Below, in pieces: positions 4,254-33,942 of a stretch of 64,000 nucleotides of DNA. How positions within the stretch are numbered: position 1 is the first letter of the stretch; every line of letters starts with the position of its first letter. Made by a program: the position numbers and the translations under genes. Origin of the DNA: a virus; IMG/VR virus record IMGVR_UViG_3300027917_002335, positions 1 to 64,000 of that record; one strand, written 5' to 3'. The notes under the pieces are model-generated. The model was not told where the DNA came from, ran no database searches, and was given only the letters and a program-made list of their open reading frames with translations.

Positions 4254-4756
4254 CTTGTCTTATTTTTATGAGGAAATTTCTTTTTTGGTATATTTTTATT
4301 TAAAAATTTACAAATTGGTTTCCAACCAAAATTCTTGTTTAAATTTAATACTAACAGTTCCCTATCTTTAAAATATTCAAAGACTTCTTTGTGATGTCTT
4401 TCATAAACTTCAGTATATTTTTGTCTGTTAAAATTCTTATCTCCATACATTAATTCCCTAAATTCATCGTCTCTTTTTAATGCTATTCCATTTTTCAGAA
4501 ACCATTTACAAGATTTTAACCAATCATCTAAAGGTCTTGTTGTGAAGATAAACTTAGAATTTGGAAATAATTTATCTAATTCTTTATATTGATAAGCTAT
4601 AGGAGAATCGCTAGCTCCATCAAATCCTTTCAATTGTTTTGCCATTTGTGGTAACAATGGCGGTCTTGGATGATGATTTATTTTATATCCTAACATTCCT
4701 AAAGCGTTCTTTAATGAAGTTGTTCCCATCCTAGACAAACTTATTATAAAAATCAT
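4250..4756 (-). CDS. Sulfotransferase-family P-loop protein
   Basis: SLSRMGTTSL 5'-PSB loop, FPNSKFIFTTR..WLKS, GWKPICKFL; start reassigned to ATG 4756 behind a GGTGA SD. Confidence 0.8.
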   Translation of the reverse strand: MIFIISLSRMGTTSLKNALGMLGYKINHHPRPPLLPQMAKQLKGFDGASDSPIAYQYKELDKLFPNSKFIFTTRPLDDWLKSCKWFLKNGIALKRDDEFRELMYGDKNFNRQKYTEVYERHHKEVFEYFKDRELLVLNLNKNFGWKPICKFLNKNIPKKKFPHKNKTR

Positions 4757-4760
4757 ATTG

Positions 4761-5528
4761 TCACCAATAACTATTATGTATTTTTTTCTTATTAACATAA
4801 AGATTTTTAGATAAATCACTAATCATATTATCAACAATTCTAAATCCTTTTCTTCTTCTGTCTTGTGGCACTTTATCAATGTGAGGTCTTGAGTGAAAAA
4901 TATGAACAAAAGGAAAGAAATGGGAATCTTCTTTTAGTTTATAAACTTTTGTTAATATTCCATGAGCATAGTTTCTAATGCCTGCATTATAATCTGTTCT
5001 CTCGTCATAACCACGAGCTTCATATAAGAATGGTCTATAAATTAAAGTACAAACAGAATGACTGGCTCTCTTATGATTTGTTTTGAATAATTTACCATCT
5101 TGATAAGAAGCATACCCTGTCATTCTAAGATAATAATCTTTTCCATTAAATCTATTCAACCAACCTTTTAAATGTTCTTCAAGATTTTCTGGATAATAAA
5201 TCCAAAAGTTTAAATAACACATAAAGTTTTCCTTCATTTCATTTATTATCTTATTAGCAATTTTGGGTTCGTGAAAGAACACTCCTTTTGTTTTCTCAAT
5301 AGTTAAGAAAGTGAAACCATATTCTTCTGCAATCTCTTTAATGTTATCAGTAGAACTATAATCTCCAATATAAACTCTTTCTCCATACTGTTTAACAGAA
5401 TCAAATGATTTTCTAACTTGCTTTTCTCCTACATATTCTACTGGATTGCGTGAATAATAATAATATCCTATGGTTTTTTCTCCACCATATTTCTCTACTA
5501 TATCATTTTTTACTTTTGTTGGATTCAA
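4761..5528 (-). CDS. Divergent GT-A (GT2-like) glycosyltransferase
   Basis: GDYSSTD, GYDER, HIFH motifs; glycan-cluster context. Confidence 0.6.
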   Translation of the reverse strand: MNPTKVKNDIVEKYGGEKTIGYYYYSRNPVEYVGEKQVRKSFDSVKQYGERVYIGDYSSTDNIKEIAEEYGFTFLTIEKTKGVFFHEPKIANKIINEMKENFMCYLNFWIYYPENLEEHLKGWLNRFNGKDYYLRMTGYASYQDGKLFKTNHKRASHSVCTLIYRPFLYEARGYDERTDYNAGIRNYAHGILTKVYKLKEDSHFFPFVHIFHSRPHIDKVPQDRRRKGFRIVDNMISDLSKNLYVNKKKIHNSYW

Positions 5529-6225
5529 GAGGATTCCTCCAGCGTTCTATTTTATTCCAATCACTAATATGTTTATGATAAAACCAACAATCTTTTATTA
5601 CAAACATTCTACCTTCATTTTCTCTCATTCGTTTTTGGAGAATTTCTTCGCCGCCACTCCATTTCCATTTCATATCGCAAAAATCTCCATTAGGAAGTTT
5701 AAATTTTTGGTAAAATTCGTTAGTAAAAGCCATTAAAAAACCATTGATATGGTCTCCAGAATTGTTCGTTATCTCCTTTATCCCTTTTCCCGCCTTTTCT
5801 GCCAGTTGAGGACTCCGTCTTATAACGCCGTTAGTTAATGGACCATATAAGCCAACATTTTTATGAGGATGATTTCTTATGGTATCTATAAATAAATTAA
5901 TTGAATCATTAATAACAACATCATCATTAACAAGTATAATCAAATCACAATTATCTTCTACCGCCATTTTAATACCATCATTATAAGGACCAGCAAGTCC
6001 TCTAATCAATTGGTCTTCAATATAGGTATATTTTATATTGTCATAATTAGGAAGTATAAATTTCTTGTCAGATTGGTTGTCAAATAAATATAAGAAGAAA
6101 TCCTTGTTACAAAATTTGTAAAGAGAAGCCACAAGAGAATTAATGGTGTTAAAATTTTTGCGTGAACACTTCTGACAGGAGTGCATTATGCAAATAAATC
6201 CCACCATAGGATTACTCATTGTCAT
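5503..6225 (-). CDS. GT2-family glycosyltransferase
   Basis: LFDNQSD, YNDGI, LVNDDV (DxD-like), GPLTN, YHKH. Confidence 0.8.
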   Translation of the reverse strand: MTMSNPMVGFICIMHSCQKCSRKNFNTINSLVASLYKFCNKDFFLYLFDNQSDKKFILPNYDNIKYTYIEDQLIRGLAGPYNDGIKMAVEDNCDLIILVNDDVVINDSINLFIDTIRNHPHKNVGLYGPLTNGVIRRSPQLAEKAGKGIKEITNNSGDHINGFLMAFTNEFYQKFKLPNGDFCDMKWKWSGGEEILQKRMRENEGRMFVIKDCWFYHKHISDWNKIERWRNPLESNKSKK

Positions 6226-6571
6226 CTTTTATCGCTTTTTCTAATTTATCAACTTTATTTGTTAATTTACTTATAAGCAATCTATTTTCAGCTACTGTAT
6301 TATTAGCGGCCAATAAAGACGCTTGTTTCTCAGTTGATTTGTCACCGAAAGATTGACCTCCTCTTATAGCATAAAAATAATTTAAAAGAACTGTCCAACA
6401 TGCTGGGGTTATAATCCAATTGTTACTATTTAATGCTATAATAAATTGCAATAAGGCTATGAATGTCGAAAGTAAAAGAGAGCCTATACTTATATATATT
6501 GTATCCGTAAATTTAATCTTTTTCGATAAATCAATCTTTATCACTTTTTCTTCTTTTGACATGATTTTCAT
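6212..6571 (-). CDS. Two-TM membrane protein with C-terminal coiled coil (possible holin-like)
   Basis: Two hydrophobic segments; lies just after the tail genes. Confidence 0.4.
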   Translation of the reverse strand: MKIMSKEEKVIKIDLSKKIKFTDTIYISIGSLLLSTFIALLQFIIALNSNNWIITPACWTVLLNYFYAIRGGQSFGDKSTEKQASLLAANNTVAENRLLISKLTNKVDKLEKAIKDDNE

Positions 6572-6646: not shown

Positions 6647-6928
6647 TCATGTTATTCTCCTCTTCTTTTTTTCTGTTACAAAATAGCGCAAAGTTTCTGC
6701 TACAATATCCGTTATCAAAATCAGTCCAAAGAAAAAAGCACCGACTTCTCCACCATAAATTATGTCTTCGTTCCAATCGTGAACTCTTAACATATATAGT
6801 CCACTTCTCTCTAATACAAATATTATTAAGAAAAATATTAATGTTTGAATGAAGCTAACAAAGAATAGTTTGGATAACCACACAAACCAGCCTTTGAAAT
6901 GATCTCTCATATAACTTCCAAATCCCAT
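6647..6928 (-). CDS. Small two-TM membrane protein
   Basis: Two hydrophobic helices, basic C-terminus. Confidence 0.5.
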   Translation of the reverse strand: MGFGSYMRDHFKGWFVWLSKLFFVSFIQTLIFFLIIFVLERSGLYMLRVHDWNEDIIYGGEVGAFFFGLILITDIVAETLRYFVTEKKKRRIT

Positions 6929-6938
6929 TTAAACCACC

Positions 6939-9269
6939 TTAAGATAAATTATGTTGATCAACTACACCAGTTCCGGCAAGTGATTTTCCTTCGCCATAAG
7001 CGTTGTTTCCTACCCATATACAATAATCTGGATGGGTTGTTATGTTATCATAAAGTCCATAAGCAGTTCCTGATCCAGTATTCGTTATATTATAAACAGT
7101 ATTTCCTGTAATTGTTGAATAATCTGCATCTGAATATGCGTATATTCCAGCAGCATTAAAACTTGAGCTTGAAGACTGTCCATGAACATCTTGTATAACA
7201 TTTCCAGTAACACTAGCGTGGTCGTCACCTATCCATATTCCAGCAACCCAAGATGAAGAACCAGTTCCACCTTCTATTTGTTCTATTGTATTGCCACTGA
7301 TAGCAACAAATGAACCGCTTGTGTATATTCCAAAGGCTGCACCAGAAGATGCATCAACATCAGTTATATAATTATTAGATATATTATCATAATTAGTATT
7401 TGATTCTATACCGTAACATCCACCATTACCAGTTATATTTGCTATATAATTTCCTTGAAATATTTTTCCATATTGAATGCCATAGCTTGCGCCAGAAGTA
7501 TTTGCCACACCATTAATGTAATTTCCAATTACAAAATCTGTGCTATATATACCAACAGCCTCATAACCAGATCTACCTTCTAAATCGTGAATGTAATTAC
7601 TTGTAGCGTATGTAACATTCCAAATACCAATACGAATTTCTTTTATCTCACAATTAGAAACTAGATAGTTTGTTGAGCCAACATTGTAAACACCGTAACC
7701 ATAACCAGTGTTAGGTCCTTCTATATAACATCTTTCTATACGAGTATAATTTGTACCAGCTCCACTAATAGCACCTACATCTGATGTAAACGATGTAGCT
7801 TGTATATACAAATCTTTTATTATAATACTATCCATGCCAGCAATAGTAAAAGCAGGATTATTTCCTGTTGTTTGTAGAATAGTATTTACTCCTTGTCCTT
7901 GAATTACAAGAGAACCACCTGAACTTATGCTAACATTCCAAGCTGCGTAAGTTCCACTTTCTATAATTATTGTTCCTCCGCCAGTTCCGATAGCTGATAC
8001 AGCGCTATTAAAAGCAGATTCAGAATCAACAATATAAACATTAGAATTAATACTTGCAACTGAACCTAATGCTCCAGAACTTTCTGTAATAGTTGCGTTT
8101 TCAATCTTAGTTCCTGTTGAGTTATATCTTAATAACCTTGTATTAGTTAAGGCGTCTACATGAACATTATCAACCTGTTCAACATTTAAATTACTAACCT
8201 TAGTTGTGCTAGCTACTGATAATGGAGCAGTTCCAGTTGATAAAGTGCTTGTTAACTGTCCACTCATATTTATTGTAGTAATTCCACCTAATGCTCCAGC
8301 TGTTTCTGTAACCGTAGCATTCTCAAGTTTAGTTCCAGTAGAATTATATCTTATTAATCTAGCGTTAGTAAGAGAATCTACTTGAACACCATCAACAGCA
8401 TCTGCATTTAAGTTTGTTACTTTAGTTGTTGAAGCAACTGTGAAAGGAGCAGTACCAGTTGTTTGAGTTGATGTTACTCTAACAAACGAAGGACTTGCTG
8501 TCGTAGCAACATCTTGCATAGTAGCAACATATCCCCATTCTGCTGAACTTATTGCTGCTCCTCCTATATTACTTAATTGTTGTAATTCTGCGTTGCTTAT
8601 ATCTACACTAGTTCCTACAATAGAATTAGCAACTAAATTAAGGTTATCATTAACAATAATGGCATCTCCGCCACCATCAATAGCCTTAACATCTTTTAAG
8701 TCAGTGTTATTTAAATCAATATCAGAATGAACATCAACAGTTCCAGATACATCAAGAGTTCCATCTATATCTGTGACATCCAAATTAGATATTCCATCAA
8801 CATCTAAGTCTCCAAGAATATCTACATTATCTTGAATATTTAAACCATATATTTGTAAGACATTATTTAATTGTCTAAATCTAATATCATAAGGAGTTCC
8901 GCCAATATCTTGTGTAATCATAACACCAGCTTTGGCTGTTGCTTCTACCGCTGTTGCGTGACCAATTCCAGATGAATCTATATAAAGCCATTCACCAGTT
9001 CCAACAGCAATAGATTGTTCGTTAACTTGAATAACTTTACCATTATACATTATATATCCTTTTGATAAAGTACCACCTGACCAAGAACAACCTTCTATTA
9101 CAAATCTAGGCAATAAAAGCCTACCAAGTATTTGATGAATCATCCATTGAATTCCAGGAATACCATCACCAGCATTTGGTGTGTATTGAAGTATTCTTGG
9201 ATCAAATCTGCCTGGTCTTTGTTGCTGACTTACATCATTCATATCCCTATTATATTTATTGCTTGCCAT
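6939..9269 (-). CDS. Tail fibre/tailspike with C-terminal right-handed beta-helix
   Basis: GTAPxxVASTTKVxNLN fibre motif twice; C-terminal GN-I/YGI repeats typical of pectin-lyase-like beta-helices. Confidence 0.8.
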   Translation of the reverse strand: MASNKYNRDMNDVSQQQRPGRFDPRILQYTPNAGDGIPGIQWMIHQILGRLLLPRFVIEGCSWSGGTLSKGYIMYNGKVIQVNEQSIAVGTGEWLYIDSSGIGHATAVEATAKAGVMITQDIGGTPYDIRFRQLNNVLQIYGLNIQDNVDILGDLDVDGISNLDVTDIDGTLDVSGTVDVHSDIDLNNTDLKDVKAIDGGGDAIIVNDNLNLVANSIVGTSVDISNAELQQLSNIGGAAISSAEWGYVATMQDVATTASPSFVRVTSTQTTGTAPFTVASTTKVTNLNADAVDGVQVDSLTNARLIRYNSTGTKLENATVTETAGALGGITTINMSGQLTSTLSTGTAPLSVASTTKVSNLNVEQVDNVHVDALTNTRLLRYNSTGTKIENATITESSGALGSVASINSNVYIVDSESAFNSAVSAIGTGGGTIIIESGTYAAWNVSISSGGSLVIQGQGVNTILQTTGNNPAFTIAGMDSIIIKDLYIQATSFTSDVGAISGAGTNYTRIERCYIEGPNTGYGYGVYNVGSTNYLVSNCEIKEIRIGIWNVTYATSNYIHDLEGRSGYEAVGIYSTDFVIGNYINGVANTSGASYGIQYGKIFQGNYIANITGNGGCYGIESNTNYDNISNNYITDVDASSGAAFGIYTSGSFVAISGNTIEQIEGGTGSSSWVAGIWIGDDHASVTGNVIQDVHGQSSSSSFNAAGIYAYSDADYSTITGNTVYNITNTGSGTAYGLYDNITTHPDYCIWVGNNAYGEGKSLAGTGVVDQHNLS
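8060..8470 (-). repeat. Tandem ~73-codon repeat inside the tail fibre gene
   Basis: STQTTGTAPFTVASTTKVTNLN...RYNSTGTKLENATVTETAGALG versus STLSTGTAPLSVASTTKVSNLN...RYNSTGTKIENATITESSGALG. Confidence 0.85.
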
Positions 9270-10132: not shown

Positions 10133-11949
10133 ACTCCAGTTCCTATATTGAATGGCATATCTGGTAAGAAATAATTTTCATACAAATCAGTTACGCCACT
10201 TAAACAATCTGTGTGATTCAAACCCCAACCCCAAGGATATAAGGTTTGCCAATTCTTATTTTTTGTATAACCAGAAACATTTGTTATACCAAATCCATCT
10301 ACAAAACCAGTTCCTTCGGTTGTGTTGTGGAATTTAATGTAACCAACATTTCCGGGAGTATTACCACTTGAAAATTGTGTTTTATTTATAAAAGTTCTTC
10401 TTTTAGAAGCACTTTGATCATAATATATACTTATATGAAACTCATTGTCTGGATAAGAATTATAAATCAAACCACTAGGATCTACTAATCCATTTTGAGA
10501 TTGATTATATTCTATCCAATATAATTCTTCTAAGCCTGTGCCTAAAACGCTACATCTTAATGTTGAACTTTCTGGATGAATCCAAAAGTCTATATGACCA
10601 CTTGTATAAGAGCCAACCATATAATTCATTGAGCTTCCGTTGCCTTTAAGCCTTGCAACATGCCTGAACTTGTCATTAGCGTTGAATATATCAACCGCTC
10701 CGCTAGTTTGCCAGATTCCTGACAAGGCAACGCCTGTAGTTTCGAAATTATCCACCGCTTCAATCCATCCATTATAACATCTGAGTCTACTATTCCAATC
10801 ATCATATATATAATCTAAACTCCCTAAATCCCAATATTTTTTAGTTAAAATTTTAGGTTTTGTCTTCATATAGAAGACTTCTTGTTCGAGAAGATCATCA
10901 AGATTTCCAATATATCTTGTTTCGTAAAATCCTACAAATACACTCACACCAGCTGGTGTAACAGACTGAGCAATATATTTTGCTAATTCTGTGTCTCCTG
11001 CATCAAAAGGAGCACCTAATTCTGCTTCTAAAGGCAAATCAATTTGCCAATGAGGCATTGAATAATGGTATCTTTCTGTGATAATAATAGAAGATTGTGG
11101 CACATTATAGAAATGCGCAAATAATCTTTTAATTTCTGTGATTGTTGGAGTTACCCACCATTTCTGAGTCCAACATTTATTCACAAATTCCCATATCTTA
11201 GCGTTTTGTGCATCTGTTACAGGATATTCAGAATATTTCGTTCTTGTTAATCTTACATCATAACCTTTATCAATTTGGATTCCTTTCTCAGCATTATATC
11301 CACTATAACCATAAGAAGAACATTGCGGACATGTATCTCCAGTATCTGGATCTATTCCACTACCATTACAATATGGACATTTTGCTGGTGCAACCCAAAT
11401 AGAATTTATTATTTCCTTAATCATGTTGTGGATTTTATACATACCTAAAAGCCATATTAGTTGGCTACCAACACTTGCTAAAAGATAAAACTTAACTTTT
11501 CCTCCTCGTTGACCAAGTATTTCAACATTAGATTGCACATCAGTTATTTCATATATCTTATTACCTAAACCAGATATTAACCAACATGCTCCATGTCTTG
11601 TGAATCTAGGAATTTCCAGAGTTGCTTCAACTGTTTCAGAACCTTCTCCATAAGTTTCTTTTGTTAATTCTCTACCAATTTGATTCCAAGTTTCTGTTCC
11701 TGTGACTTCAGCTATTTTACCAGTTATAGTCAATGTTAAATTAGATTCTCTTATTTGTTCGTCTACGATTGCTATTACTGGTCCAGGAGCTGTAACAGTT
11801 CCATACTTAGAAACATTCTTTTGTATGAAACCCTCTGTTCTATTCCATTCAGCAAGTTCGATTATATTTGCTCCAGCGTGAGGTGTTTCTTCTCTAACTC
11901 TTTTGAACGCCGTGTTCACATAATAATCAATTTGGTCACGAATATCCAT
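10123..11949 (-). CDS. Baseplate wedge protein (gpI-like position) with DnaJ-type Zn finger and C-terminal LamG-like domain
   Basis: Follows baseplate J; VTPAGV wedge motif; CPYCNGSG...CPQC; IDFWIHP beta-sandwich motif. Confidence 0.6.
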   Translation of the reverse strand: MDIRDQIDYYVNTAFKRVREETPHAGANIIELAEWNRTEGFIQKNVSKYGTVTAPGPVIAIVDEQIRESNLTLTITGKIAEVTGTETWNQIGRELTKETYGEGSETVEATLEIPRFTRHGACWLISGLGNKIYEITDVQSNVEILGQRGGKVKFYLLASVGSQLIWLLGMYKIHNMIKEIINSIWVAPAKCPYCNGSGIDPDTGDTCPQCSSYGYSGYNAEKGIQIDKGYDVRLTRTKYSEYPVTDAQNAKIWEFVNKCWTQKWWVTPTITEIKRLFAHFYNVPQSSIIITERYHYSMPHWQIDLPLEAELGAPFDAGDTELAKYIAQSVTPAGVSVFVGFYETRYIGNLDDLLEQEVFYMKTKPKILTKKYWDLGSLDYIYDDWNSRLRCYNGWIEAVDNFETTGVALSGIWQTSGAVDIFNANDKFRHVARLKGNGSSMNYMVGSYTSGHIDFWIHPESSTLRCSVLGTGLEELYWIEYNQSQNGLVDPSGLIYNSYPDNEFHISIYYDQSASKRRTFINKTQFSSGNTPGNVGYIKFHNTTEGTGFVDGFGITNVSGYTKNKNWQTLYPWGWGLNHTDCLSGVTDLYENYFLPDMPFNIGTGVCL

Positions 11950-11950
11950 T

Positions 11951-13789
11951 TTATCCTACTCCTCTTTGGAGGTTTCTACTTCCTAGGTCAGGTATTTCGT
12001 CGTCAGCTAAATATATATCTTCTTGTTCCCACACTGATTGATCTGACCTTTTAATATAAAGTTCTTTTTGTCTCCATACATTTGGATGTTTCATTATCTC
12101 ATACTCAATACGAGAATAAATAACATTATCTCCAGTTTCTAAAGATTCAAGATAACTTTCAATATTAGCTATTACATCTTCTCTTACTGTAGCAAAATCT
12201 GATAATTCAGTTACATAGATAATACCTTTAATATCTATATCAATTTCTTCTGACTCTAATATTTGGTATTGAATTCCTACTGGACTATATCCTCCGCCAT
12301 CAATATAATCCAATTGACCATCTAACACATCTTTTAGATTCTCAAAACCAAATCCGTCTTCTGGAGATAAAATAACTGTGTAACCAGCACCATTATACCA
12401 ATTTTTAAACATTAAATGTATTCCAGTTGGTTGTTCTTGTGCAACGCCAGACACATATTTATATAAACTATATCTTGAATCTCCTCCACCATAACTTTCA
12501 AGACTTGTTCTAATTTCCCAATAATTTGTAGCAAAGTCTATACCAGTTACACCATCCTCTGGAGGATGACACCATAAATCAAATCTATAAGTTTTAGTTT
12601 TATCCAATCCATTATACTTTAGGTCAAAGTTAATATCTTGAAATCCTGTGAGTCCTGGAATTAAATCAATTTCTTCTATTAAAGTTTCGTCTAAATGTAA
12701 ACCAGTTTGCACAGTGTTTAATCTAATACCACATTTTATTCCTGGTGGTGCATTAACAGCTCTTCCACTTAATGTTATTCTACCTAATGAAAGAACTAAA
12801 TCACCTGGCACAAAAGATTGGCTCCATATTAAACCGTAAGAATCAACTCTTTTCACTGTACCAGTAGTAGGAGAATCCCAATTGAGAACTGAAGTTTGGT
12901 CAACGCCTTTATCTTGATAAACTTTTACTGCTCTGACTCCCTCTATATTTGAAGCTAAATCTTTAACTTTTGCTAAAGTAAATGTTCTATATCTTGCTTC
13001 TAACTGTCTTGCTCTGTAAACATCATCAGATTCTTTATCTGTTCCAGATGTTATATCTTCACTGTTTGTAACAGTTAAGAATGAATATGTAACGCTATTT
13101 GTTATTTCTCCAACTTTTGCATTGCTAACAGCACCAGAAGCAACAGAAGTAACCTCAACCCTTCTTGTAACTTGTCCTTCAACTTCTACATAATATCCTT
13201 CATTCTCAATTATATAACCAGAACTAGCATCGAGCCAATGAATGTTATTGTGATAAGTTTCATCAAACTCCCAAACACTTTCTGGTATTACAGTCAGGTT
13301 TTCTTTTAGAACTTGAACTACGCTTTGGGCATAAGGATAATCACTTGAAAAATAATCATAAGATTCTCCAGTTTTACTTTTAGTTCCTTGAATTCTATAT
13401 GGAATATAAGAATCTTCATCTGCCAAATAAGAATTAAGAGATGACCTAAATTCTGCTCCTTGTGCAATTAAAATTGGTGCTCCATTTATTGTTGCTGTAC
13501 AATCGACATATCCTTCAGCATGTGTAGCACCTCTTCGAGGCATTCCATTTTCTATTCCATGTTTATCAAGCCAAGTACCAACAGCTTGTCTTATAGACAT
13601 TTGTTCTGCTGCTGTTTCTAAAAGTGTTTCATAATAAAATTCGTCAAGGCTGTGAATCTTCATTTGTTGCCAAAGCCAAGAACTAGGAGTAAAGTTAACT
13701 ACATCCATTATATCTTTTGCTTTTTCTTCATAGTCTTCTATAATTTCTTTTGCGCTTCTTGGAGTAAATCCATCATCATTATACGGCAT
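11951..13789 (-). CDS. Baseplate J-like wedge protein with internal insertions
   Basis: AVGTWLD, GTDKESDDVYRAR, IEGVRAVKVY, LETGDNVIYSRI. Confidence 0.88.
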   Translation of the reverse strand: MPYNDDGFTPRSAKEIIEDYEEKAKDIMDVVNFTPSSWLWQQMKIHSLDEFYYETLLETAAEQMSIRQAVGTWLDKHGIENGMPRRGATHAEGYVDCTATINGAPILIAQGAEFRSSLNSYLADEDSYIPYRIQGTKSKTGESYDYFSSDYPYAQSVVQVLKENLTVIPESVWEFDETYHNNIHWLDASSGYIIENEGYYVEVEGQVTRRVEVTSVASGAVSNAKVGEITNSVTYSFLTVTNSEDITSGTDKESDDVYRARQLEARYRTFTLAKVKDLASNIEGVRAVKVYQDKGVDQTSVLNWDSPTTGTVKRVDSYGLIWSQSFVPGDLVLSLGRITLSGRAVNAPPGIKCGIRLNTVQTGLHLDETLIEEIDLIPGLTGFQDINFDLKYNGLDKTKTYRFDLWCHPPEDGVTGIDFATNYWEIRTSLESYGGGDSRYSLYKYVSGVAQEQPTGIHLMFKNWYNGAGYTVILSPEDGFGFENLKDVLDGQLDYIDGGGYSPVGIQYQILESEEIDIDIKGIIYVTELSDFATVREDVIANIESYLESLETGDNVIYSRIEYEIMKHPNVWRQKELYIKRSDQSVWEQEDIYLADDEIPDLGSRNLQRGVG

Positions 13790-14156
13790 TTGGTATTCCC
13801 TCTTCTAATAATACTATATCTCCTAATTTTGATTGAACTGCAACTTTAATATGTAATTGCTGACCATCCCGCCAAGCCTCAATTGAGTCTATCGCAAAAA
13901 TTAATCTTTCTTTTGCTGGATCGAGAGCATCGGCTAATAAGCTCTTTATAACTTCTGTTGGTGCACCGCCACTGTTCATTCTTACCGCAGAACGCAAATC
14001 AAATCCATAGTATAAATTCCATATTTCAGAACCAGTTTGAGTGTTTAACAGATTGTCTATAATTTGATAAAATGCATAATTGTCTTCTATTTCTATGTAA
14101 TCTCCATCCTCCATAATTGGATCACCAGTTCGGAGGTCTAACAGAATTCCAGGCAT
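13779..14156 (-). CDS. Baseplate gp25/gpW-like wedge protein
   Basis: LNTQTGSEIWNLYYGFD motif; directly upstream of baseplate J. Confidence 0.75.
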   Translation of the reverse strand: MPGILLDLRTGDPIMEDGDYIEIEDNYAFYQIIDNLLNTQTGSEIWNLYYGFDLRSAVRMNSGGAPTEVIKSLLADALDPAKERLIFAIDSIEAWRDGQQLHIKVAVQSKLGDIVLLEEGIPNAV

Positions 14157-14202
14157 TTTTTACCATTCCTCACATTTGTCATTTTTTTTCCTTCCTTAAC
14201 CT

Positions 14203-14227
14203 TATATTGTTTTTAAAGTTTATAAAG
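14203..14227 (-). promoter_or_regulatory. Late promoter copy 1 (CTTTATAAACTTTAAAAACAATATA)
   Basis: 25-nt motif with TATA box shared with 33911-33935 and 45858-45882; upstream of the baseplate genes. Confidence 0.75.
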
Positions 14228-14903
14228 TTATGTATTTTTTTATTTTTGTTTTAGTATCCATGTGTTTAATACTTCTCATAACATTCCACAATTCTTTATA
14301 TACATCAAAAGGAACATCAATAAAATCAGCAATCTTCTTCATTTCTGTATCAAAATCATTCATTAAATCGTGGAAGTTAATTCTTAAAACCAATTCTTTA
14401 GGATACTCAGCCAAAAACTCTTCTTCTTTCTTTTCTTTTAACACATTCCAAAATACAACAGTTTTATAATCTTTTGGTACAAAACCAAATTCATCTATAA
14501 AAATTTGCTGAAATGCTTTTGATTTTGAAACCAGATTCTTCCATAATCCATCTTCCCATATTTTTATATGAGAATTTATTCTTTCCATTAAAGGTCTATC
14601 CAATTTTATTATCTTACTATTTGGATATATTTTTATAAATTCTTTAATAAGAAAGATTAATTCTGGACATTTACATATTTCCCATTTATATTTTGGTATA
14701 ATTTTATCCATGTTAATTTTAGGGTATTTGAACCATAAATTCATTCTAACTTCTGGTGGTTCAGAATCGTGTGTATGTAACGACCATAAACCCCAATTAA
14801 GTAATCCTGTTAATAAGAGACATTTATGAACTAAACTTGTTGCTGCTCTACTACCTAATATAATTATCTTATCCTTCCTTAAATTTCTTGTCCATTTAGT
14901 CAA
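14220..14903 (-). CDS. Sulfotransferase-family protein
   Basis: ILGSRAATSLV, KCPE, YPNSKIIKLDR..SH, INFHDL..KKIADFI. Confidence 0.7.
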   Translation of the reverse strand: MTKWTRNLRKDKIIILGSRAATSLVHKCLLLTGLLNWGLWSLHTHDSEPPEVRMNLWFKYPKINMDKIIPKYKWEICKCPELIFLIKEFIKIYPNSKIIKLDRPLMERINSHIKIWEDGLWKNLVSKSKAFQQIFIDEFGFVPKDYKTVVFWNVLKEKKEEEFLAEYPKELVLRINFHDLMNDFDTEMKKIADFIDVPFDVYKELWNVMRSIKHMDTKTKIKKYITL

Positions 14904-15597
14904 TTAACAAACTCATCTCTGTAATAAAATTTTGTATAAATTCGGCGCTATCAAAATCTTGTATTAATTCGTCTAAACCTACAACATCAGTGTCTATGTC
15001 ACCAAACACATAATTGTCTATTCCTTGCCTTCCCATCACATTAACTCTATAAGCATGATATTCATTATCTGGTAATATTGTTTTCATCATTTCTCTATCT
15101 ACATGAAAAAATATATCACTATGAACAGCCATAATCTTATTTGGTATTCCGTTATCAATTACCCACCCAAATAGTTTATCATTTTGTGTTTTTAATCCAT
15201 AGGCTTTATCTTCTACTCCTAAGACAGCATCTTTTCTTATAAGTATATCACAAGGAATACTATAATGTTTTTCAAGAGTATTTTTAACAGCTTGAAAACC
15301 TAATCCTTTCCCCTTTCTATGGAAAACAGCCCAAGAGAAATTCATAGGTTGGTATATCATCGTTTCTGCTTTTATATTTGGAGTATTTATGACATAGGCA
15401 TCATAAGAACCTGCTTGGAAGGTGCTGTTTTTACATTTAAATATTATTGGTTTTGTATGCCATTGATTATAACTAAATCTACCTATTAAATGGCTATCTT
15501 CATAACCAGCTCCAGTTCTTATTCCACTCATTACATTTTTTATTTCAAATAAATCAAAAAATACATCCTGTTGCGATTCGTTTATTTTAACTCTCAT
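14896..15597 (-). CDS. Divergent lipoate-protein-ligase (LplA/BPL fold)-like protein
   Basis: IYQPMNFSWAVF, DKLFG (cf. KISG), HSDIFFHVD (cf. HGTLL..D), VVGLDEL; lacks RRxSGGG. Confidence 0.5.
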   Translation of the reverse strand: MRVKINESQQDVFFDLFEIKNVMSGIRTGAGYEDSHLIGRFSYNQWHTKPIIFKCKNSTFQAGSYDAYVINTPNIKAETMIYQPMNFSWAVFHRKGKGLGFQAVKNTLEKHYSIPCDILIRKDAVLGVEDKAYGLKTQNDKLFGWVIDNGIPNKIMAVHSDIFFHVDREMMKTILPDNEYHAYRVNVMGRQGIDNYVFGDIDTDVVGLDELIQDFDSAEFIQNFITEMSLLID

Positions 15598-16188
15598 TTA
15601 TTTTCACAATATTTTCTTCATTAAGGTAATTTTTCCAATCACCTATTATTCCTTTTCTACTACAAGGTATTAAACCTATGCTTTCCATAGGCTTAAATCT
15701 TTCACAAACCTTATTTATTTCTTCATCAGTTTTGTGAACATTAAGAAAATTCAACACTTTCTTTATTGTATCATTTAAATTATTCCACATATCTTCATAA
15801 TGAATTAACAAATAGTTAGGATGTTTAAATTCATTATACATTTTCCATTGTGTAACTGTGAAATCAAATAATTGCTTGTCTTCTGATATCTTTCTATTCA
15901 TAAAACTTTCATCTCTTTCCATCTCTACACTATAAATGTACCATATTTTAGATACAAATATATCTTTTAATTCTCTGGTTAAAGAGATTACCTTTGCAAA
16001 TTCACATAAATCTTTTGGATTAACCCAATGACATCTAACTCTTTTGTGCTCTTCTAATAACTTTTTTATATTATCTGGATTTTGTTCTCTTACTGTGATA
16101 GGAATAAATTTAAATTTTAATAAAGATCTTAATATATGGTTTAACCAATTAGAACCGACTCTCATTTGTGTTGATATTATATATTCCA
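15587..16188 (-). CDS. Sulfotransferase domain protein
   Basis: QMRVGSNWL, RELKDIFVS, IHYEDM, RKGIIGDWKNYL; start likely ATG 16188. Confidence 0.88.
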
Positions 16189-16191
16189 TTA

Positions 16192-16617
16192 CTATGCTCC
16201 ATATAATATTTCTCTTATTGCATCTATTCTTGCTTGGCATTCTTCCAAATTTTCAACATTACAATCGTGGCAGAGTATATTTAATTCATTCAATCTTGTA
16301 TGAGTTTCATCGTCTAAACCCATAACAATTGTATATCCACAATCATTAAACCAGTCTTCATCTTCCCTATTTCTTACTTGTGGGAAATCTCTACATATAT
16401 CTGGTCTATTTTCATATATATTACATACCGCCAATCCTTCAGCATCAAAACTTAAGTGTTCACAAGGTTTTCTTGTGCCACCAAGTTCTGGTCTTTTATC
16501 TAAGAAATAACAACACTTACCACATCTTTTACAACTTCCTGTTATGATAAATGGATTATTATCTTTAACCATATCATAAAATTCTTGTATTTTTAAAGGA
16601 CATTCTTTTATCGGCAA
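16192..16617 (-). CDS. YkgJ-family cysteine cluster protein
   Basis: CKRCGKCC, CEHL, CNIYENRPDICRDFP. Confidence 0.85.
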   Translation of the reverse strand: MPIKECPLKIQEFYDMVKDNNPFIITGSCKRCGKCCYFLDKRPELGGTRKPCEHLSFDAEGLAVCNIYENRPDICRDFPQVRNREDEDWFNDCGYTIVMGLDDETHTRLNELNILCHDCNVENLEECQARIDAIREILYGA

Positions 16618-17048
16618 TTTTGTAATATATCCTCTATTAATTCTATTCTTAATTTACAAGCTTCTTGATATTTTTGAGTTGGACAGAAATAACATTTTAA
16701 ATTTAATCTGTCTAATGCTTCTTGTTTTTCTAATTCAATATTTGCTCTAAATGTATAACCACAATCTTTATACCACTCTTTATCTTCTTCTGTTTTGTAT
16801 GGTAAAACTGGATGATCTTTACAATTCTGTGGTCTTGTTTTATATATTAAACACACCGCTGTATTACCATCATATCTAAGAAACTCACAAGGTACTCTTT
16901 CTCTTGTTTCCCTATTTATTATAAAATGACAACATTTACCACATCTATTACACTGTCCTTCTCTCATAAATGGATTATTATCTCTTACCATTTCATAATG
17001 TTTTTGTGGATCTACTTCCAATCCATTTCTTAATTTCATTAACACCAT
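16608..17048 (-). CDS. YkgJ-family cysteine cluster protein (tandem paralogue)
   Basis: CNRCGKCC, CEFL, CLIYKTRPQNCKDHP; shares DNNPF and DCGYT with its neighbour. Confidence 0.85.
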   Translation of the reverse strand: MVLMKLRNGLEVDPQKHYEMVRDNNPFMREGQCNRCGKCCHFIINRETRERVPCEFLRYDGNTAVCLIYKTRPQNCKDHPVLPYKTEEDKEWYKDCGYTFRANIELEKQEALDRLNLKCYFCPTQKYQEACKLRIELIEDILQNCR

Positions 17049-17998
17049 TAGTTATACTCACAACTACACACTTTATCACAGCTACATTCATTGTAACAAT
17101 CACAATCATCATCACAGGTACAATCTGTATTACATCCACAGCCTTGTGATTGACAGGTACATTGATTTTCACAACTACAGTAACCATATTTATTACAACT
17201 ACAATCTAAGCATGTCATCCAACAAACATAATTTAAATCACAGCCACAGTCGGTATTACACCCACAACCTTGAGCTTCGCAAGTACATGCTTCTGTGTTA
17301 CAATCACACTCATTACCACAACTACTATAATATGTGTTGCAGTCACAGTCATTGCCACAATCATTGTCACATAAACATCCTTCGTCTTCGCAAGTACATT
17401 GTGATTCACAGGTACATTGGAATTCACAGGTACATACTAAAGCACAGTGACCAGAACATCCACATATATCTATATTACACGCACAGGAATAATCGTCACA
17501 ACCACAGACAGTATCACATCCACAACCTTCTGCTTGACAGGTACATTGAGCCTCACAATTACAGTAACCAAAACAAGTACAATCGTCATCACAACCACAT
17601 ACCAAATCACAAGAACAGCTGTAAGTTTGACTATATGTATCGCAATCACATTGAGCTACCAGATTATCTATATCAGCATCAATCTCATTTATGTTAACGG
17701 CAGTAATCTCATCACCTGCATCGTGATCACCTGAAGATGCCGTAAGAGACAATGTTGTTCCTGTTTTAGTTGTATCTCCTGCGTCACGATCACCATCTGC
17801 TTCACAATAACAATGATGAGCATTAATAAGAGAATTCTGAGAAATCATATCTTTAAATTTTTGACCCAAAATTTCAGCATCAGCACTGACACTACCTATA
17901 TCGGTGAGTCCAACTCCCCTACCATTTTCCTCGTTGTTAATTTTAGTGATAATTGCGTTAATATCACTGGCAGTTATTTCGTTGTCTTGGGTTACCAT
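17048..17998 (-). CDS. Cys-rich CxC-repeat protein, putative rSAM substrate or virion appendage
   Basis: About 61 Cys; 27 CxC units in the C-terminal ~200 aa; N-terminal EITAxxINxI repeats. Confidence 0.75.
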   Translation of the reverse strand: MVTQDNEITASDINAIITKINNEENGRGVGLTDIGSVSADAEILGQKFKDMISQNSLINAHHCYCEADGDRDAGDTTKTGTTLSLTASSGDHDAGDEITAVNINEIDADIDNLVAQCDCDTYSQTYSCSCDLVCGCDDDCTCFGYCNCEAQCTCQAEGCGCDTVCGCDDYSCACNIDICGCSGHCALVCTCEFQCTCESQCTCEDEGCLCDNDCGNDCDCNTYYSSCGNECDCNTEACTCEAQGCGCNTDCGCDLNYVCWMTCLDCSCNKYGYCSCENQCTCQSQGCGCNTDCTCDDDCDCYNECSCDKVCSCEYN

Positions 17999-19067
17999 CG
18001 CTAATATTATATTTGCGTTTTAATTCTTCTATTGCTCTTGATAATTCAGTAAACATTATATTGTATTTTGCGTTTTGATAATACACAGTATTGCTTGTTT
18101 GAATATTTGTGGCAGGACACCACATAAACCATGGAATTTTAAATCCTTTTTGTAAATCTGTAATTGAAGAATACATTTTTTCTTCTTCTTTCAATCTCGA
18201 ATAAGAATTATACTGTTTGTAATTTTTGAATTCTTTTGGCTTATATACATTACCTAATTTATAATTTTCTCTTTCTGGTACAGTTGCTAAACGATGACAA
18301 GGATATATATCAAAATTTTCATCAATTGCTAATAAACTAGTACCAGCACCGCAAGACGCACCAATTCTGTTAAATAAAGACGATAATGTTGTAATCTTTT
18401 CTTTATATGTGAAATCTGGAAGTTTCATAATCATTTCTGTAAATTTATAGAACTGTTCAATAATAATATCTACATCCTTATCATCCCAATCTTCTTCAAA
18501 TATAACTTGAATTGTGTTTTGTCTTAGATGTTTTGTAGCTTCTTCCTTACTTTGTAACCTATATATTTTAAAAAACCAAAATAAAGATTCTGCTAAATAA
18601 GGTAATGTTTCTTTTGTGCAAACTCCGTGAATAGACCAAGGAACTTTATGCTTAATACAAGCAGATATTCCTTTTATAATATCATCAAAAGTTCCTCTTC
18701 CATTTGCATACTTTCTATTAATATCATTAACATGTCTTGGTCCATCGACACTTATTTGCATGTGTAAACCAAGTTCTTTAATCTTTTCTATATATTTAGG
18801 AATAAGAACGCCGTTTGTTATAAGATTCTCTTTAATAAGTTTTTTCTTATGTTCATCTGCAGTTTCTAATATCTTTTCTAATAATTCCAATCGTAATAAT
18901 GGTTCACCACCAAAAGGAAAGAACGCTGTAAAACAACCTTCTTCAACATATTTTCTAAATTTTTCAACATCCATATTTCCATTATATTTATGTTCAAAGC
19001 AATATTTACACCTTAAATTACATTTACCTGTAAGCATTACATCTGGACAATTAATATGAAACATCAT
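17964..19067 (-). CDS. Radical SAM/SPASM maturase (anSME/ranthipeptide-maturase-like)
   Basis: CNLRCKYC, FGGEPLL, TNG, ISVDGP, R....GRGTFD, SCGAG...IYPCHR, WCPA. Confidence 0.9.
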   Translation of the reverse strand: MMFHINCPDVMLTGKCNLRCKYCFEHKYNGNMDVEKFRKYVEEGCFTAFFPFGGEPLLRLELLEKILETADEHKKKLIKENLITNGVLIPKYIEKIKELGLHMQISVDGPRHVNDINRKYANGRGTFDDIIKGISACIKHKVPWSIHGVCTKETLPYLAESLFWFFKIYRLQSKEEATKHLRQNTIQVIFEEDWDDKDVDIIIEQFYKFTEMIMKLPDFTYKEKITTLSSLFNRIGASCGAGTSLLAIDENFDIYPCHRLATVPERENYKLGNVYKPKEFKNYKQYNSYSRLKEEEKMYSSITDLQKGFKIPWFMWCPATNIQTSNTVYYQNAKYNIMFTELSRAIEELKRKYNISDGNPRQRNNCQ

Positions 19068-19969
19068 TTTAATATACCTCCTATAAATTTTGTTATATAA
19101 GCCTCTTCAACAAAATTACCCATTATTTTCTTATTCTGATAGAAATCTGTAAGACCATCAAAATCCTTTTTCATATCTATATAACTTCTAAGAATGTTAA
19201 GCTCTTTAAAGGGAACTTCATTTCCATTGTGTTTATAGTGTTTTGCTAAGTCAAACAACATATCTCCTTCTTCAAACGCTTGTTTAGTCACATATAATTT
19301 GAAATCTCTTGATACGAATATTGTCTTCCCTTTTCTTCTATAATACATCATTGGTTGCTTATTCTTTTTATTCTTCTTATCCATAGAACTTATTTTCCAT
19401 ATATTTAACTGGCGCAACCAAAATTCTAATTTGTGTAATTCTTCAATTGTCATTTTATCAAAGGATTCATAATCAAAATTTATTTTAAAGAATCTATAAC
19501 CAAGTTTCATATAGATTTCTATAATCTTTATAACTGACTCTTCAAAGTTGTCGTAATTAATATTGGTTTCAATCCATAAAGGATTAGACCGTGTCCAAGA
19601 TAAGAATGATTCTATAATGTGTAAATCAAATCTGTTTATTTCTATGTCGTCTGTTGTTGTTATACTAAACCTTTTATTTTTTATTGGTTTGCTTCTATCA
19701 AAAAATGTTTCTAATAAATCTGGCTTAATAAGCAAATTAAAATTTGTCATTTCACACATATAATTTTCTGCAGCCAATTTTACAAATACATCTATTTCTT
19801 CAAAAGTTTTAACAGGAAGATTAATTATAACTTGTTTCGTTAGAGTTATTGTGTCTTTCTTTAAACATTCTGTAAATGTTTTGAAGTTTTCGAATTCTAT
19901 TTCTTTAAAGGCGTTTAGTATATCTTTAGAATTAAATAAATCCTTAATAAAAAGTTGTCTTTCTATCAT
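19064..19969 (-). CDS. Degenerate rSAM-fold-like partner protein (no CxxxCxxC)
   Basis: NINYDNFEES..IYMKLGYRFFKINFD and TIFVSRDFKLY echo rSAM/SPASM segments without the Cys ligands; coupled to the rSAM gene. Confidence 0.4.
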   Translation of the reverse strand: MIERQLFIKDLFNSKDILNAFKEIEFENFKTFTECLKKDTITLTKQVIINLPVKTFEEIDVFVKLAAENYMCEMTNFNLLIKPDLLETFFDRSKPIKNKRFSITTTDDIEINRFDLHIIESFLSWTRSNPLWIETNINYDNFEESVIKIIEIYMKLGYRFFKINFDYESFDKMTIEELHKLEFWLRQLNIWKISSMDKKNKKNKQPMMYYRRKGKTIFVSRDFKLYVTKQAFEEGDMLFDLAKHYKHNGNEVPFKELNILRSYIDMKKDFDGLTDFYQNKKIMGNFVEEAYITKFIGGILK

Positions 19970-21141
19970 AATACTTTAACCCAATGTCTATCGTTAACCC
20001 AAACACCTCGGGTTTTAATTTTTGTTTCTTTAAACATATATTTAGCAATTGCTTTTTGCATAATAATCTCTTCTTTTGTTGCTTTAGTTAACCATCCTTT
20101 TTCATTTGGAACTAATAAGTCTCCTGCTTCATATACTTCGTCAACATGAGCTAATAAGAAACCACCAATTGAAATTGGAACGGCTCTTTGTTTAGAACCA
20201 ACAGCATGTCCATAAGTATCAGAACAAATACCAATACAAGCCTTGTCAGCTCTTTTACTAGTTATCCTCAATCCTTTCTTATTAAGAGAATAACAATATC
20301 CTGGTAATTTTGAAACACCTACTTCGGCTTTCCAATAATCTGCGTAGTCGTTATATACTGCGTTATAAACTCTGGTTGCATAGAAATAACCATCATAATT
20401 TAATCTTGTGGTGTTTGTTGGGTCAGTTGAACCAGCATATAAATATGCGCTAGTTTTAGTTGTTCCAGCAATTTTTAATATTCCACTTAAATCAAGTGTG
20501 CCTTCTGCCTCAACAGCACTTACTGCTTCTGAATCAGCATATCTTACATGATGAGCACTTGTTGGAGCATCACTTAAATTTGCGTGTGCTCTTGTTGCTA
20601 AATCAGCTAAACTTGAGCCTGTCTTATCTAAATCGCTCCAAGGTAAACTACCAAAATGAACACCTGAAGCAGTTGTTAAGGCGTGAGAAGATGGTGCAAA
20701 TTCAGATGGTTTATTTGCTAAGTCTCCCCAATTTAAATAACCTGCATTAAAATCATCACCATCTGCTTTCAACACAAGACCAGATGTATAAGCAATGTTA
20801 CCTACATCTGATAAATCTGTTAAAGAGCCAACAACTCCTCCTCCTCCACCATACAGAGAAAACCAAAGACCAGAAGCTTGATGCCATCCATAAATACCAG
20901 AAGCATCTATTCTTATTTTATTATGATTATATAATCCAATTTCTACTTTTTGAACACCGCCATTAGCTCCACCCAATCTCCAATATGGATCAAGAGTAGA
21001 AATATGACTTCCATAGTCTATTGTTTTCCAATTAGGATCAATATAATTACCAGAAGCATATCCACCTAAGAACAATCCAACCCATACCATTGGATTTGCT
21101 TCATTGAATCGGCTTCCGCCTTTAATATAAAATGTTGACAT
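19966..21141 (-). CDS. Tail fibre with C-terminal intramolecular chaperone (peptidase G2-like)
   Basis: LTDLSDV, WGDLANKPSEFAPSSH fibre motifs; YNDYADYW...IGICSD...VPISIGG...GDLLV. Confidence 0.75.
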   Translation of the reverse strand: MSTFYIKGGSRFNEANPMVWVGLFLGGYASGNYIDPNWKTIDYGSHISTLDPYWRLGGANGGVQKVEIGLYNHNKIRIDASGIYGWHQASGLWFSLYGGGGGVVGSLTDLSDVGNIAYTSGLVLKADGDDFNAGYLNWGDLANKPSEFAPSSHALTTASGVHFGSLPWSDLDKTGSSLADLATRAHANLSDAPTSAHHVRYADSEAVSAVEAEGTLDLSGILKIAGTTKTSAYLYAGSTDPTNTTRLNYDGYFYATRVYNAVYNDYADYWKAEVGVSKLPGYCYSLNKKGLRITSKRADKACIGICSDTYGHAVGSKQRAVPISIGGFLLAHVDEVYEAGDLLVPNEKGWLTKATKEEIIMQKAIAKYMFKETKIKTRGVWVNDRHWVKVL

Positions 21142-33910: not shown

Positions 33911-33935
33911 TATATTGTTTTTAAAGTATTTAAAG
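33911..33935 (-). promoter_or_regulatory. Late promoter copy 2 (CTTTAAATACTTTAAAAACAATATA)
   Basis: Same motif; upstream of the protease/MCP operon, followed by a GGAGG SD. Confidence 0.75.
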
Positions 33936-33942
33936 GTAAACA

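Follow-up and report, generated by a model that had tools for sequence, protein, structure and literature searches.

Radical S-adenosylmethionine (SAM) enzymes are known to staple small secreted peptides through thioethers, one archaeal protein having been added in 2026, and chemistry of the ranthionine type is known from PapB, CteB, QhpD and NxxcB. Here we describe a viral locus in which such chemistry may be applied to a tail-associated protein. The window, the whole stretch of DNA that was analysed, covers the initial 64 kb of an IMG/VR virus record of 99.5 kb (IMGVR_UViG_3300027917_002335), which CheckV rates as complete. Between positions 14220 and 19969 it encodes a run of eight genes, three of which form a module that recurs in other loci: a radical SAM enzyme, a partner protein with a predicted radical SAM fold and no cluster motif, and a cysteine-rich protein with a long CxC array (the Cys-repeat protein). 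The functional unit may be this apparently virus-restricted module, in which the enzyme pair would staple the Cys-repeat protein by ranthionine-type links to form a tail-associated product. We give this reading an even chance of being right.

The maturation of Cys-repeat substrates by radical SAM enzymes is already known; its setting in a virus tail module is undescribed. A literature search on phages, radical SAM enzymes, Cys-rich proteins and tail fibres found no paper on radical SAM/Cys-repeat modules in virus tail operons, and no paper linking radical SAM thioether stapling to a virus particle.

Among published systems, CrpC/CrpA of Methanococcus voltae (family TIGR04463) comes closest: CrpC places ranthionine links, demonstrated by mass spectrometry, on the Cys-repeat protein CrpA, and an N-terminal domain helps engagement (PMC13692751). 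As in the viral module, the radical SAM gene lies beside a gene for a protein-sized Cys-repeat substrate, and this substrate combines a folded N-terminal domain with a repeat array predicted at low confidence, with repeats of the Cys-x-x-Q/D type. The enzymes differ, however: CrpC possesses a RiPP (ribosomally synthesised and post-translationally modified peptide) recognition element (RRE) together with a complete SPASM domain that holds two auxiliary clusters, and the viral enzyme has neither. The CrpC system is also cellular, and has no dead paralogue and no tail-gene context.

The best relatives in sequence and structure are PapB/PapA (freyrasin; 131 bits for PapB) and CteB/CteA (SCIFF; 2.5e-30 for CteB), and CteB is also the best fold match of the dead partner (Z 13.2). 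The PapA and CteA substrates carry repeated cysteines with acceptors of the Asp/Thr type. Unlike these enzymes, the viral protein scores far under the family cut-offs, has no RRE and retains no more of the SPASM motif than its first part. Its presumed substrate, instead of a leader-core peptide, is a protein of 316 aa that carries about 28 units. The anaerobic sulfatase-maturating enzyme (anSME, PDB 4k36) is the sole solved structure that aligns near full length; it also lacks an RRE and acts on a cysteine of a whole protein. It differs in having two auxiliary clusters, in the CxPxR substrate motif, which is absent from the viral module, and in profile score (72 bits for the viral enzyme vs a cut-off of 349).

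A precedent for paired radical SAM proteins comes from thuricin CD, where TrnC and TrnD work only as a complex and the radical chemistry of one of them is dispensable (PMC12093266). The likeness to the viral pair lies in a tight complex of two proteins of radical SAM fold in which the radical chemistry of only one partner is essential for thioethers (PMC12093266). TrnD, however, still binds clusters and is active, whereas the CxxxCxxC motif is missing from 85 of 85 representatives of the viral partner family, and the TrnC/TrnD substrates are two short peptides. As judged from sequences and models, the features of the viral module that would be new are a fully degenerate partner in a predicted heterodimer, an auxiliary domain apparently reduced to one cluster, and a strict CxC[DENQ] hexad.

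Conservation of the module

The genes for the partner, the enzyme and the Cys-repeat protein occur together in all seven distinct viral or metagenomic loci (the window, L002, L003, L005 (the same as L004), L043, L044 and L218). The L043 contig ends within the partner gene, which is still recognised at E 6e-36. The gene order is partner, enzyme, Cys-repeat protein in five of the seven loci, and enzyme, Cys-repeat protein, extra gene, partner in the other two. In these two loci the tailoring genes between the Cys-repeat gene and the partner are variable: L005 encodes a GT2 glycosyltransferase (11731-12537) and a short second radical SAM protein of 262 aa (13417-14205), and L218 encodes a 339-aa open reading frame (ORF) with 13 Cys (6667-7686).

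Contexts were gathered by pattern scans seeded with family alignments, and the independent loci are few (seven). A first scan of viral contigs with a single protein gave no match. Scans with the enzyme-family patterns found four viral contigs, of which three are distinct, and two contigs from metagenomes. A reciprocal scan that started from the Cys-repeat family led back to these viral contigs and to one more. The metagenome scan returned 80 loci, of which 2 are true family members and the rest generic radical SAM enzymes at 24-28% identity. Approximately 67 metagenomic relatives of the enzyme have 28-59% identity to it, followed by a gap to generic radical SAM proteins. A pattern-seeded scan of 185,579 prokaryotic species, each represented by a single genome, found no family member (best match 31% identity over partial length). 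As far as a search seeded with patterns can show, the module seems restricted to viruses.

The original prediction presented all eight genes as one cassette. The comparison reduces this to a conserved core: three genes are present in 7/7 loci, a YkgJ-like gene in only two (the window, with two copies, and L002), and the block of sulfotransferase, 233-aa ORF and second sulfotransferase is confined to the window. In L043, the closest relative, one unrelated 144-aa ORF replaces the two YkgJ-like genes, the two sulfotransferase genes and the 233-aa ORF. The core of the idea, a radical SAM enzyme beside a CxC protein inside a tail module, was borne out by other viral contigs, as this neighbourhood recurs in 7/7 loci and does so with the partner.

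Tail-related context was found in each locus with enough flanking sequence. L003 has a tail sheath gene, a fibre gene, the module and then a tail protein gene, and L005 has a fibre-like protein upstream. L002 encodes a 1153-aa beta-helix protein related to that at 6939-9269 of the window. In L043 the module is followed by gp25, J and three more genes homologous to the baseplate region of the window. L044 and L218 encode a fibre 'tip' domain of about 140 aa like that at the end of the window's fibre-like protein (19966-21141). This domain lies directly upstream of the module in four of the seven loci: the window (20000-20390), L003 (7240-7668), L044 (136-543) and L218 (3903-4742). It carries the motifs YNAVYNDYAD, IGICSD and WVKV, in that order, and the window copy is 33-38% identical to those of L003, L044 and L218. 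The L003 fibre homologue matches phrog_11660 'tail protein' (2.5e-13), and the fibre-like protein of the window has weak matches to Peptidase_G2/IMC (intramolecular chaperone) and to tail collar fibre gp4 (9d93, E 0.016). The tip domain could be a docking or processing site linked to the module.

L003 also encodes a 1475-aa protein resembling the beta subunit of multisubunit RNA polymerase (13251-17678; phrog_3148, 2.3e-51) a few kilobases from the module. The module therefore spans quite different virus lineages.

The radical SAM enzyme

Membership of the enzyme (17964-19067) in the radical SAM superfamily is clear from the motif CNLRCKYC at residues 16-23 and a PF04055 match of 68.9 bits (cut-off 29.5). 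In an alignment of 34 homologues, C16, C20 and C23 are invariant or nearly so. The protein lacks an RRE because it begins directly with the radical SAM core: its cluster motif is reached at residue 16, and CteB aligns with it only from CteB residue 101 onward, past the CteB RRE.

The original prediction called this protein a radical SAM/SPASM enzyme, of which the first half holds and the second does not. There is no match to the SPASM family PF13186 at E <= 0.1, and the only invariant cysteines after the core in the 34-homologue alignment are C239, C257 and C317. A canonical SPASM domain was taken as the seven-Cys motif CX9-15GX4C ... CX2CX5CX3C ... C with two auxiliary clusters. Of this motif, the viral enzyme shares with CteB and anSME only the first part, through a CGxG...YPCH segment, and it has no CX2CX5CX3C part. 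Homologues within the enzyme family likewise have no precomputed PF13186 match, and more distant relatives have one. The C-terminal domain thus resembles a reduced, Twitch-like SPASM remnant rather than a canonical SPASM domain.

The best of 64 NCBIfam matches is the PapB ranthipeptide maturase NF047865 (131.3 bits, cut-off 340), followed, far under their cut-offs, by models for nif11, DynA, CXXX-repeat, CcpM, SCIFF and anSME maturases. These include the CXXX-repeat maturase TIGR04115 (82.4 bits, cut-off 350), the SCIFF maturase TIGR03974 (74.7 bits, cut-off 425) and the anSME equivalog TIGR03942 (72.1 bits, cut-off 349). The CrpC family TIGR04463 (rSAM_vs_C_rich) reaches 33.2 bits (cut-off 525) over profile positions 86-229 only. 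Against the PDB, the enzyme-family profile matches CteB at 2.5e-30 and anSME at 1e-24; only the latter alignment is full length (enzyme residues 16-301 vs 13-303). Some database sources label homologues of the enzyme 'AslB'. By these scores the enzyme appears to fall outside every named family tested (PapB, CXXX-repeat, SCIFF, anSME, CrpC and SPASM), and its nearest relatives liken it to a ranthionine synthase.

The cluster-less partner and the predicted heterodimer

The partner (19064-19969) is a 301-aa protein with two cysteines, no CxxxCxxC motif and no Pfam family match. The AlphaFold2 model, built on a 58-sequence alignment, has a predicted local distance difference test score (pLDDT) of 94.9. 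In the PDB, radical SAM/SPASM or Twitch enzymes take all of the first nine places among its matches: CteB (Z 13.2, 264 residues aligned), TigE (12.4), ChlB (9.6), SkfB (9.0), BlsE (9.0), anSME (8.8), PqqE (8.5), DesII (8.2) and SuiB (7.8), with generic TIM barrels next at Z of about 7. The best Foldseek E value is 1.2e-4. The alignment to CteB covers CteB residues 79-439, i.e., the protein without its RRE. Because sequence profiles show no similarity (hhalign probability of 0.3% for the partner vs the enzyme family, and no match of the partner family in a PDB profile search), we infer homology to radical SAM enzymes from the fold only. The CxxxCxxC motif occurs in 0 of 85 representative clusters of the partner family, which have a median of three cysteines. 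According to the predicted fold, the partner is a pseudoenzyme of the radical SAM/SPASM type that has lost its cluster ligands, and it belongs to a long-established family. This agrees with the earlier description of a Cys-less radical SAM-like protein.

Enzyme and partner are predicted to form a heterodimer. The complex prediction gave an ipSAE interface score of 0.77 (runs of 0.77, 0.71 and 0.78), and the best of three controls scored 0.00. Among solved complexes 58 of 80 attain the mark used for this score, compared with 2 of 110 among mismatched pairs; as the complex was predicted from self-built family alignments, these counts hold only roughly. Contacts agreed among runs at the level of at least 97%, and the partner pLDDT was at least 88. 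The partner contributes its N-terminus (residues 1-11) and residues 249-267 and 283-288 to the interface, which holds most of the few near-invariant residues of the family (R4, L11, G249, L257 and D265). Conservation of the partner interface is 0.61 vs 0.37 elsewhere (permutation p < 1e-4). For the enzyme interface the difference is weak (0.58 vs 0.52, p 0.065).

The Cys-repeat protein

The product of 17048-17998 contains exactly 61 cysteines in 316 aa (19% Cys), close to the earlier estimate of about 61. They are arranged in 28 CxC units that are mostly 6-7 residues apart. Directly behind CxC, 25 of the 28 units have D, E, N or Q (binomial p 3.6e-7 vs a 43% background), as do 233 of 275 units over 16 family members. 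The unit is thus of CxC type with a period of 6-7 residues, and not of CXXX type. Nor does the system resemble a RiPP in the strict sense: there is no RRE, and a 316-aa protein with a 118-aa folded domain takes the place of a short leader-core precursor.

The 16 family members share an N-terminal domain (N-domain) of about 115 aa with invariant or near-invariant I20/N21, N59, H62-C-Y-C65, D109/I110 and Q116. The length of the CxC array is highly variable, from 6 to 33 units, and the C-terminal end is conserved (CxCDxVCxCEY(N/GG); here CxCDxVCxCEYN). AlphaFold2 predicts three long helices for the N-domain (residues 1-118, pLDDT 80-92) and an unfolded CxC array (pLDDT about 25). Fold matches of the N-domain are to non-specific helical proteins (best Z 7.4; TssK Z 4.8), and its BFVD matches are small unnamed phage proteins (E 6.7e-3). 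A search of the N-domain profile against the tail proteins of these genomes found no paralogue. Virion membership is therefore proposed from gene position only.

Within the array, the DNA retains no more than two short repeats of 18 nt. This divergence implies that the repeat is maintained by selection on the protein. Recent slippage was considered as an origin of the repeat and rejected, as the array keeps only short tandem repeats at the DNA level. No metallothionein or other family matches the protein at E <= 0.1 in Pfam or NCBIfam.

The helical N-domain also contains an isolated, near-invariant NxxHCYCE motif (residues 59-65, window 17803-17823), located in a low-confidence loop. It may be a metal site or a priming or recognition CxC unit.

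Genome context and accessory genes

The eight ORFs lie on the minus strand and each overlaps its neighbour by 1-49 nt, in line with the original prediction of tightly coupled genes between the tail fibre and gp25/J (Table 1). The overlaps are 4 nt for fibre-like protein and partner, 4 nt for partner and enzyme, and 35 nt for enzyme and Cys-repeat protein, and a 63-nt gap separates the last ORF from the gp25-like gene. A same-strand scan found no terminator-like site within the run. Because fibre, gp25, J, portal and terminase genes surround the run and no terminator lies within it, the eight genes are assigned to the late operon for structural proteins of a head-tailed virus whose baseplate is of the contractile type.

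Table 1. Features of the window discussed in the text.
Feature	Position	Strand	Remarks
NAD-dependent epimerase/dehydratase	1-945	-	
GT1-type glycosyltransferase	942-2237	-	
SAM methyltransferase	2227-3267	-	
Second radical SAM protein, true SPASM domain (7.5e-14)	3255-4253	-	
Sulfotransfer_4 protein	4250-4819	-	
Baseplate J/wedge protein	11951-13789	-	phrog_6 at 1.2e-44
gp25-like sheath initiator	13779-14156	-	PF10934 6.1e-6, phrog_43
AT-rich 20-nt motif, possible promoter of baseplate unit	14209-14228	-	Twin at 33917-33936(-)
Second sulfotransferase, Sulfotransfer_3 type	14220-14903	-	PF13469
233-aa ORF, no assigned function	14896-15597	-	No family match
Sulfotransferase, cytosolic SULT type	15587-16240	-	PF00685, PDB SULT matches
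YkgJ/YcgN-like CxxCxxCC protein copy 2, 141 aa, 12 Cys	16192-16617	-	Tandem paralogue of copy 1
YkgJ/YcgN-like CxxCxxCC protein copy 1, 146 aa, 12 Cys	16608-17048	-	Accessory; PF03692 borderline
Cys-repeat protein, 316 aa, 61 Cys	17048-17998	-	Core gene 3; presumed substrate
Active radical SAM enzyme, 367 aa	17964-19067	-	Core gene 2; PF04055, CNLRCKYC
Cluster-less pseudo-radical-SAM partner, 301 aa	19064-19969	-	Core gene 1; 2 Cys, no CxxxCxxC
Fibre-like tail protein	19966-21141	-	C-terminal ~140-aa 'tip' domain, motif YNAVYNDYAD
Portal	35330-36802		Upstream of run
Large terminase	36992-38668		Upstream of run

General scans for sigma-70 promoters and terminators gave no more matches than expected by chance. 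An AT-rich 20-mer (ACTTTATAAACTTTAAAAAC) overlaps the final codons of the second sulfotransferase gene and reaches into the 63-nt gap. It has one twin with three mismatches, which is also intergenic (2 matches vs 0.06 expected), and both copies precede structural genes. The repeat reported earlier at this edge of the run is thus real; its label as a late promoter is inference, and we treat the 20-mer as a candidate late promoter. Its core, TTTATAAA, fits either an archaeal TATA box or a T4-type late promoter.

The description of the virus as an archaeal-type myovirus was not upheld, as the terminase, baseplate J and replication genes give no host assignment. The terminase is about 25% identical to those of T4-like cyanophages, the baseplate J protein has no match among phage records, and most structural proteins have no Pfam or PHROG match. 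The replication genes (a split PolB and a replication factor C-like AAA+ protein) are not diagnostic of host. DNA of the stretch is present in marine sediment metagenomes, possibly including the source sample; no RNA dataset is listed as containing it. At 56551-56700 the window also encodes tRNA-Ala(TGC) and, 8 nt on, a second tRNA-like gene, for which ARAGORN reports an odd anticodon of two bases.

The two YkgJ-like proteins are 43% identical to each other and carry CxxCxxCC at C33/36/39/40 and C29/32/35/36. The claim of two YkgJ Cys-cluster proteins holds as far as a paralogous pair with CxxCxxCC goes, with both PF03692 matches borderline (15.2 bits for copy 1 and 22.7 bits for copy 2, cut-off 23). 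NCBIfam matches to YcgN are at 1e-5 to 1e-4 (7.9e-5 for copy 1), far under the cut-offs. Copy 1 is 34% identical to the ORF that follows the Cys-repeat gene in L002. By analogy, these proteins probably bind an Fe-S or Zn centre, and they may be optional helpers or tailoring enzymes. In FliB, a Cys motif holds a [4Fe-4S] cluster, and the enzyme methylates flagellin in the cytoplasm (PMC8598068). The likeness to FliB/PF03692 is that the pair carries CxxCxxCC and that FliB, which has a similar Cys motif, modifies a surface filament protein (PMC8598068). In contrast, the viral proteins are only 141-146 aa long, score at or under the Pfam cut-off and occur in two of seven loci, and a methylase activity cannot be inferred from this.

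Both sulfotransferase assignments were reproduced above cut-off: 15587-16240 matches PF00685 (53.5 bits, 2.9e-14, cut-off 22) and PDB entries including SULT1B1 (7e-6), and 14220-14903 matches PF13469 (37.4 bits, 4.2e-9, cut-off 27). For the first of these genes a start at 16192 (Met residue 17), with a 1-nt stop-codon overlap, looks more likely than the start at 16240, which overlaps the YkgJ-like gene by 49 nt. The 233-aa ORF, described earlier as LplA-like, has no match in Pfam, NCBIfam, PHROG or the PDB and one homologue, metagenomic, among 5.8 billion clusters. Its Atlas model is poor (pLDDT 0.29), and the nearest clusters are unnamed, none of them BPL_LplA_LipB. The suggestion of an acylated appendage, which leaned on an LplA-like call that no tool reproduced, falls with it.

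No sulfotransferase homologue was found in the six other loci, and the sulfotransferases cannot be tied to the module; together with the 233-aa ORF they are lineage-specific additions. A second modification cluster ends the same operon (window 1-6571, minus strand). Its five assigned genes are listed in Table 1, and it includes three further ORFs without assigned function. Its make-up resembles that of a glycan pathway, encoded behind the tail genes, whose product would be sulfated and methylated. Elsewhere in the genome, beyond the window (L123, L128), we identified an APS kinase (91113-91535; PF01583, 155 bits) and a weak sulfotransferase-like match under the family cut-off (87810-88181), which brings the number of sulfotransferase-like genes to as many as four. 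Gene content of this kind suggests a virus-supplied route to PAPS (3'-phosphoadenosine 5'-phosphosulfate), and sulfation and glycosylation look like a genome-wide theme, for which virion glycans, the fibre, the stapled protein or the host surface are candidate targets. The proposal of a sulfated appendage therefore read too much into the locus: the two sulfotransferases could as well belong to a dispersed viral repertoire for sulfation and glycosylation that includes the 1-6571 cluster and the APS kinase.

Discussion

The Cys-repeat protein is probably the substrate of the enzyme pair. In the scheme we favour, the enzyme would pair with its cluster-less paralogue, neither of which has an RRE, and the heterodimer would bind the unfolded CxC array of the neighbouring protein, with the approximately 28 CxC[D/E/N/Q]xx units as targets. 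The radical of the enzyme would take a side-chain hydrogen from a carbon of the D, E, N or Q residue, after which a nearby Cys thiolate would make the C-S bond (ranthionine type). The three-Cys site may hold a single auxiliary cluster, with one iron open to the substrate thiolate; an open site of this kind is reportedly present on Aux I of CteB (5WGG/5WHY). The available registers, C-x-C-[DENQ] and [DENQ]-x-x-C, resemble CxxxD (PapB), NxxC (NxxcB) and C-x-x-Q/D (CrpA). Whether the links are thioethers we consider an even call. The product would be a multiply stapled, rigid and protease-resistant domain on a folded helical N-domain. The module would be co-transcribed with the late tail genes, and because of this and of its place beside the fibre and baseplate genes the product is most likely tail-associated, as an appendage, a decoration or an assembly factor; for its presence on the tail of the particle our confidence falls a little short of even. 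In the most specific version, marine-sediment viruses of the head-tailed kind would possess a dedicated heterodimer, formed by a radical SAM enzyme with its cluster-less paralogue, that installs up to about 28 C-S staples in a tail fibre or baseplate component, the paralogue replacing the RRE as substrate-handling subunit. This version is tentative and, taken as a whole, rather doubtful.

Several observations weigh against this scheme. Gene adjacency is no proof of an enzyme-substrate relation, and CxC arrays are also typical of metal binders. The complex was predicted from self-built alignments, and the conservation check depends in part on the predictor. The N-domain has no detectable similarity to tail proteins, and its fold matches are unspecific (Z <= 7.4). 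The enzyme is under all curated cut-offs (PapB, CXXX-repeat, SCIFF, anSME and CrpC) and lacks the second auxiliary cluster of the characterised thioether synthases, so its chemistry may differ.

Differing chemistry is the basis of one alternative, in which the pair modifies the Cys-repeat protein by anSME-like conversion of Cys to formylglycine, by sactionine (alpha-carbon) formation, by epimerisation or by methylation. The only full-length PDB alignment is indeed to anSME (1e-24), which also has no RRE and acts on whole proteins, some databases apply the 'AslB' label to homologues, and the reduced auxiliary domain is unlike that of known ranthionine synthases. We nevertheless think such chemistry improbable, as the anSME equivalog profile gives 72 bits vs 349 and the PapB profile scores higher (131 bits), the substrate has no CxPxR sulfatase motif and the module no sulfatase gene, and the strict presence of D/E/N/Q beside Cys fits a donor-acceptor pairing. 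Metal binding likewise leaves this acceptor-position bias unexplained, which counts against another alternative: that the Cys-repeat protein is a metallothionein-like store of metal or Fe-S, or a disulfide-knotted protein, and is not enzymatically cross-linked, with the radical SAM pair and the YkgJ-like proteins serving another target such as the fibre or a glycan. A protein with 19% Cys in CxC motifs and no ligand-free predicted fold, next to genes for Fe-S/Zn-type proteins and in the same operon as a glycan-type cluster with another radical SAM enzyme, is compatible with such a role. Yet no metallothionein or other family matches at E <= 0.1, the N-domain is folded and conserved and the C-terminal end is also conserved, and linkage to the enzyme pair is strict (7/7) while YkgJ-like and glycan genes vary; this alternative is, in our view, quite improbable.

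It is also conceivable that the protein is stapled and the product lies outside the virion. The module would then be a late-operon 'moron' that makes a stapled RiPP-like toxin, competitor-killing factor or host-takeover factor, acting in the cell or released at lysis. Soluble products are the rule in the characterised Cys-repeat/radical SAM systems (PapB, SCIFF and CrpA), the lack of homology between the N-domain and tail proteins accords with such a product, and the variability of the accessory genes (GT2, extra radical SAM, YkgJ-like and sulfotransferase genes) recalls biosynthetic clusters. What makes this unlikely is the constant place of the module between fibre and baseplate genes in viruses that share few other genes, with the same fibre tip domain directly upstream in four of seven loci. 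Moreover, the module contains no signal peptide, protease or exporter gene, and no member was found in the scanned cell genomes, where such weapons usually also occur.

The strictly conserved pairing of an active enzyme with a degenerate paralogue makes the module a clean system for studying the role of non-catalytic radical SAM subunits. Because the enzyme is compact (367 aa, no RRE and one putative auxiliary cluster) and its presumed target is a regular repeat, it could also serve protein-stapling biotechnology. For the viruses themselves, the favoured reading of a stapled, tail-associated Cys-repeat protein would, if true, add a new layer to virion assembly, namely a virion component cross-linked by an enzyme through radical chemistry. 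Were the product located on the tail, these viruses would harden or tune their host-recognition apparatus by covalent radical chemistry.

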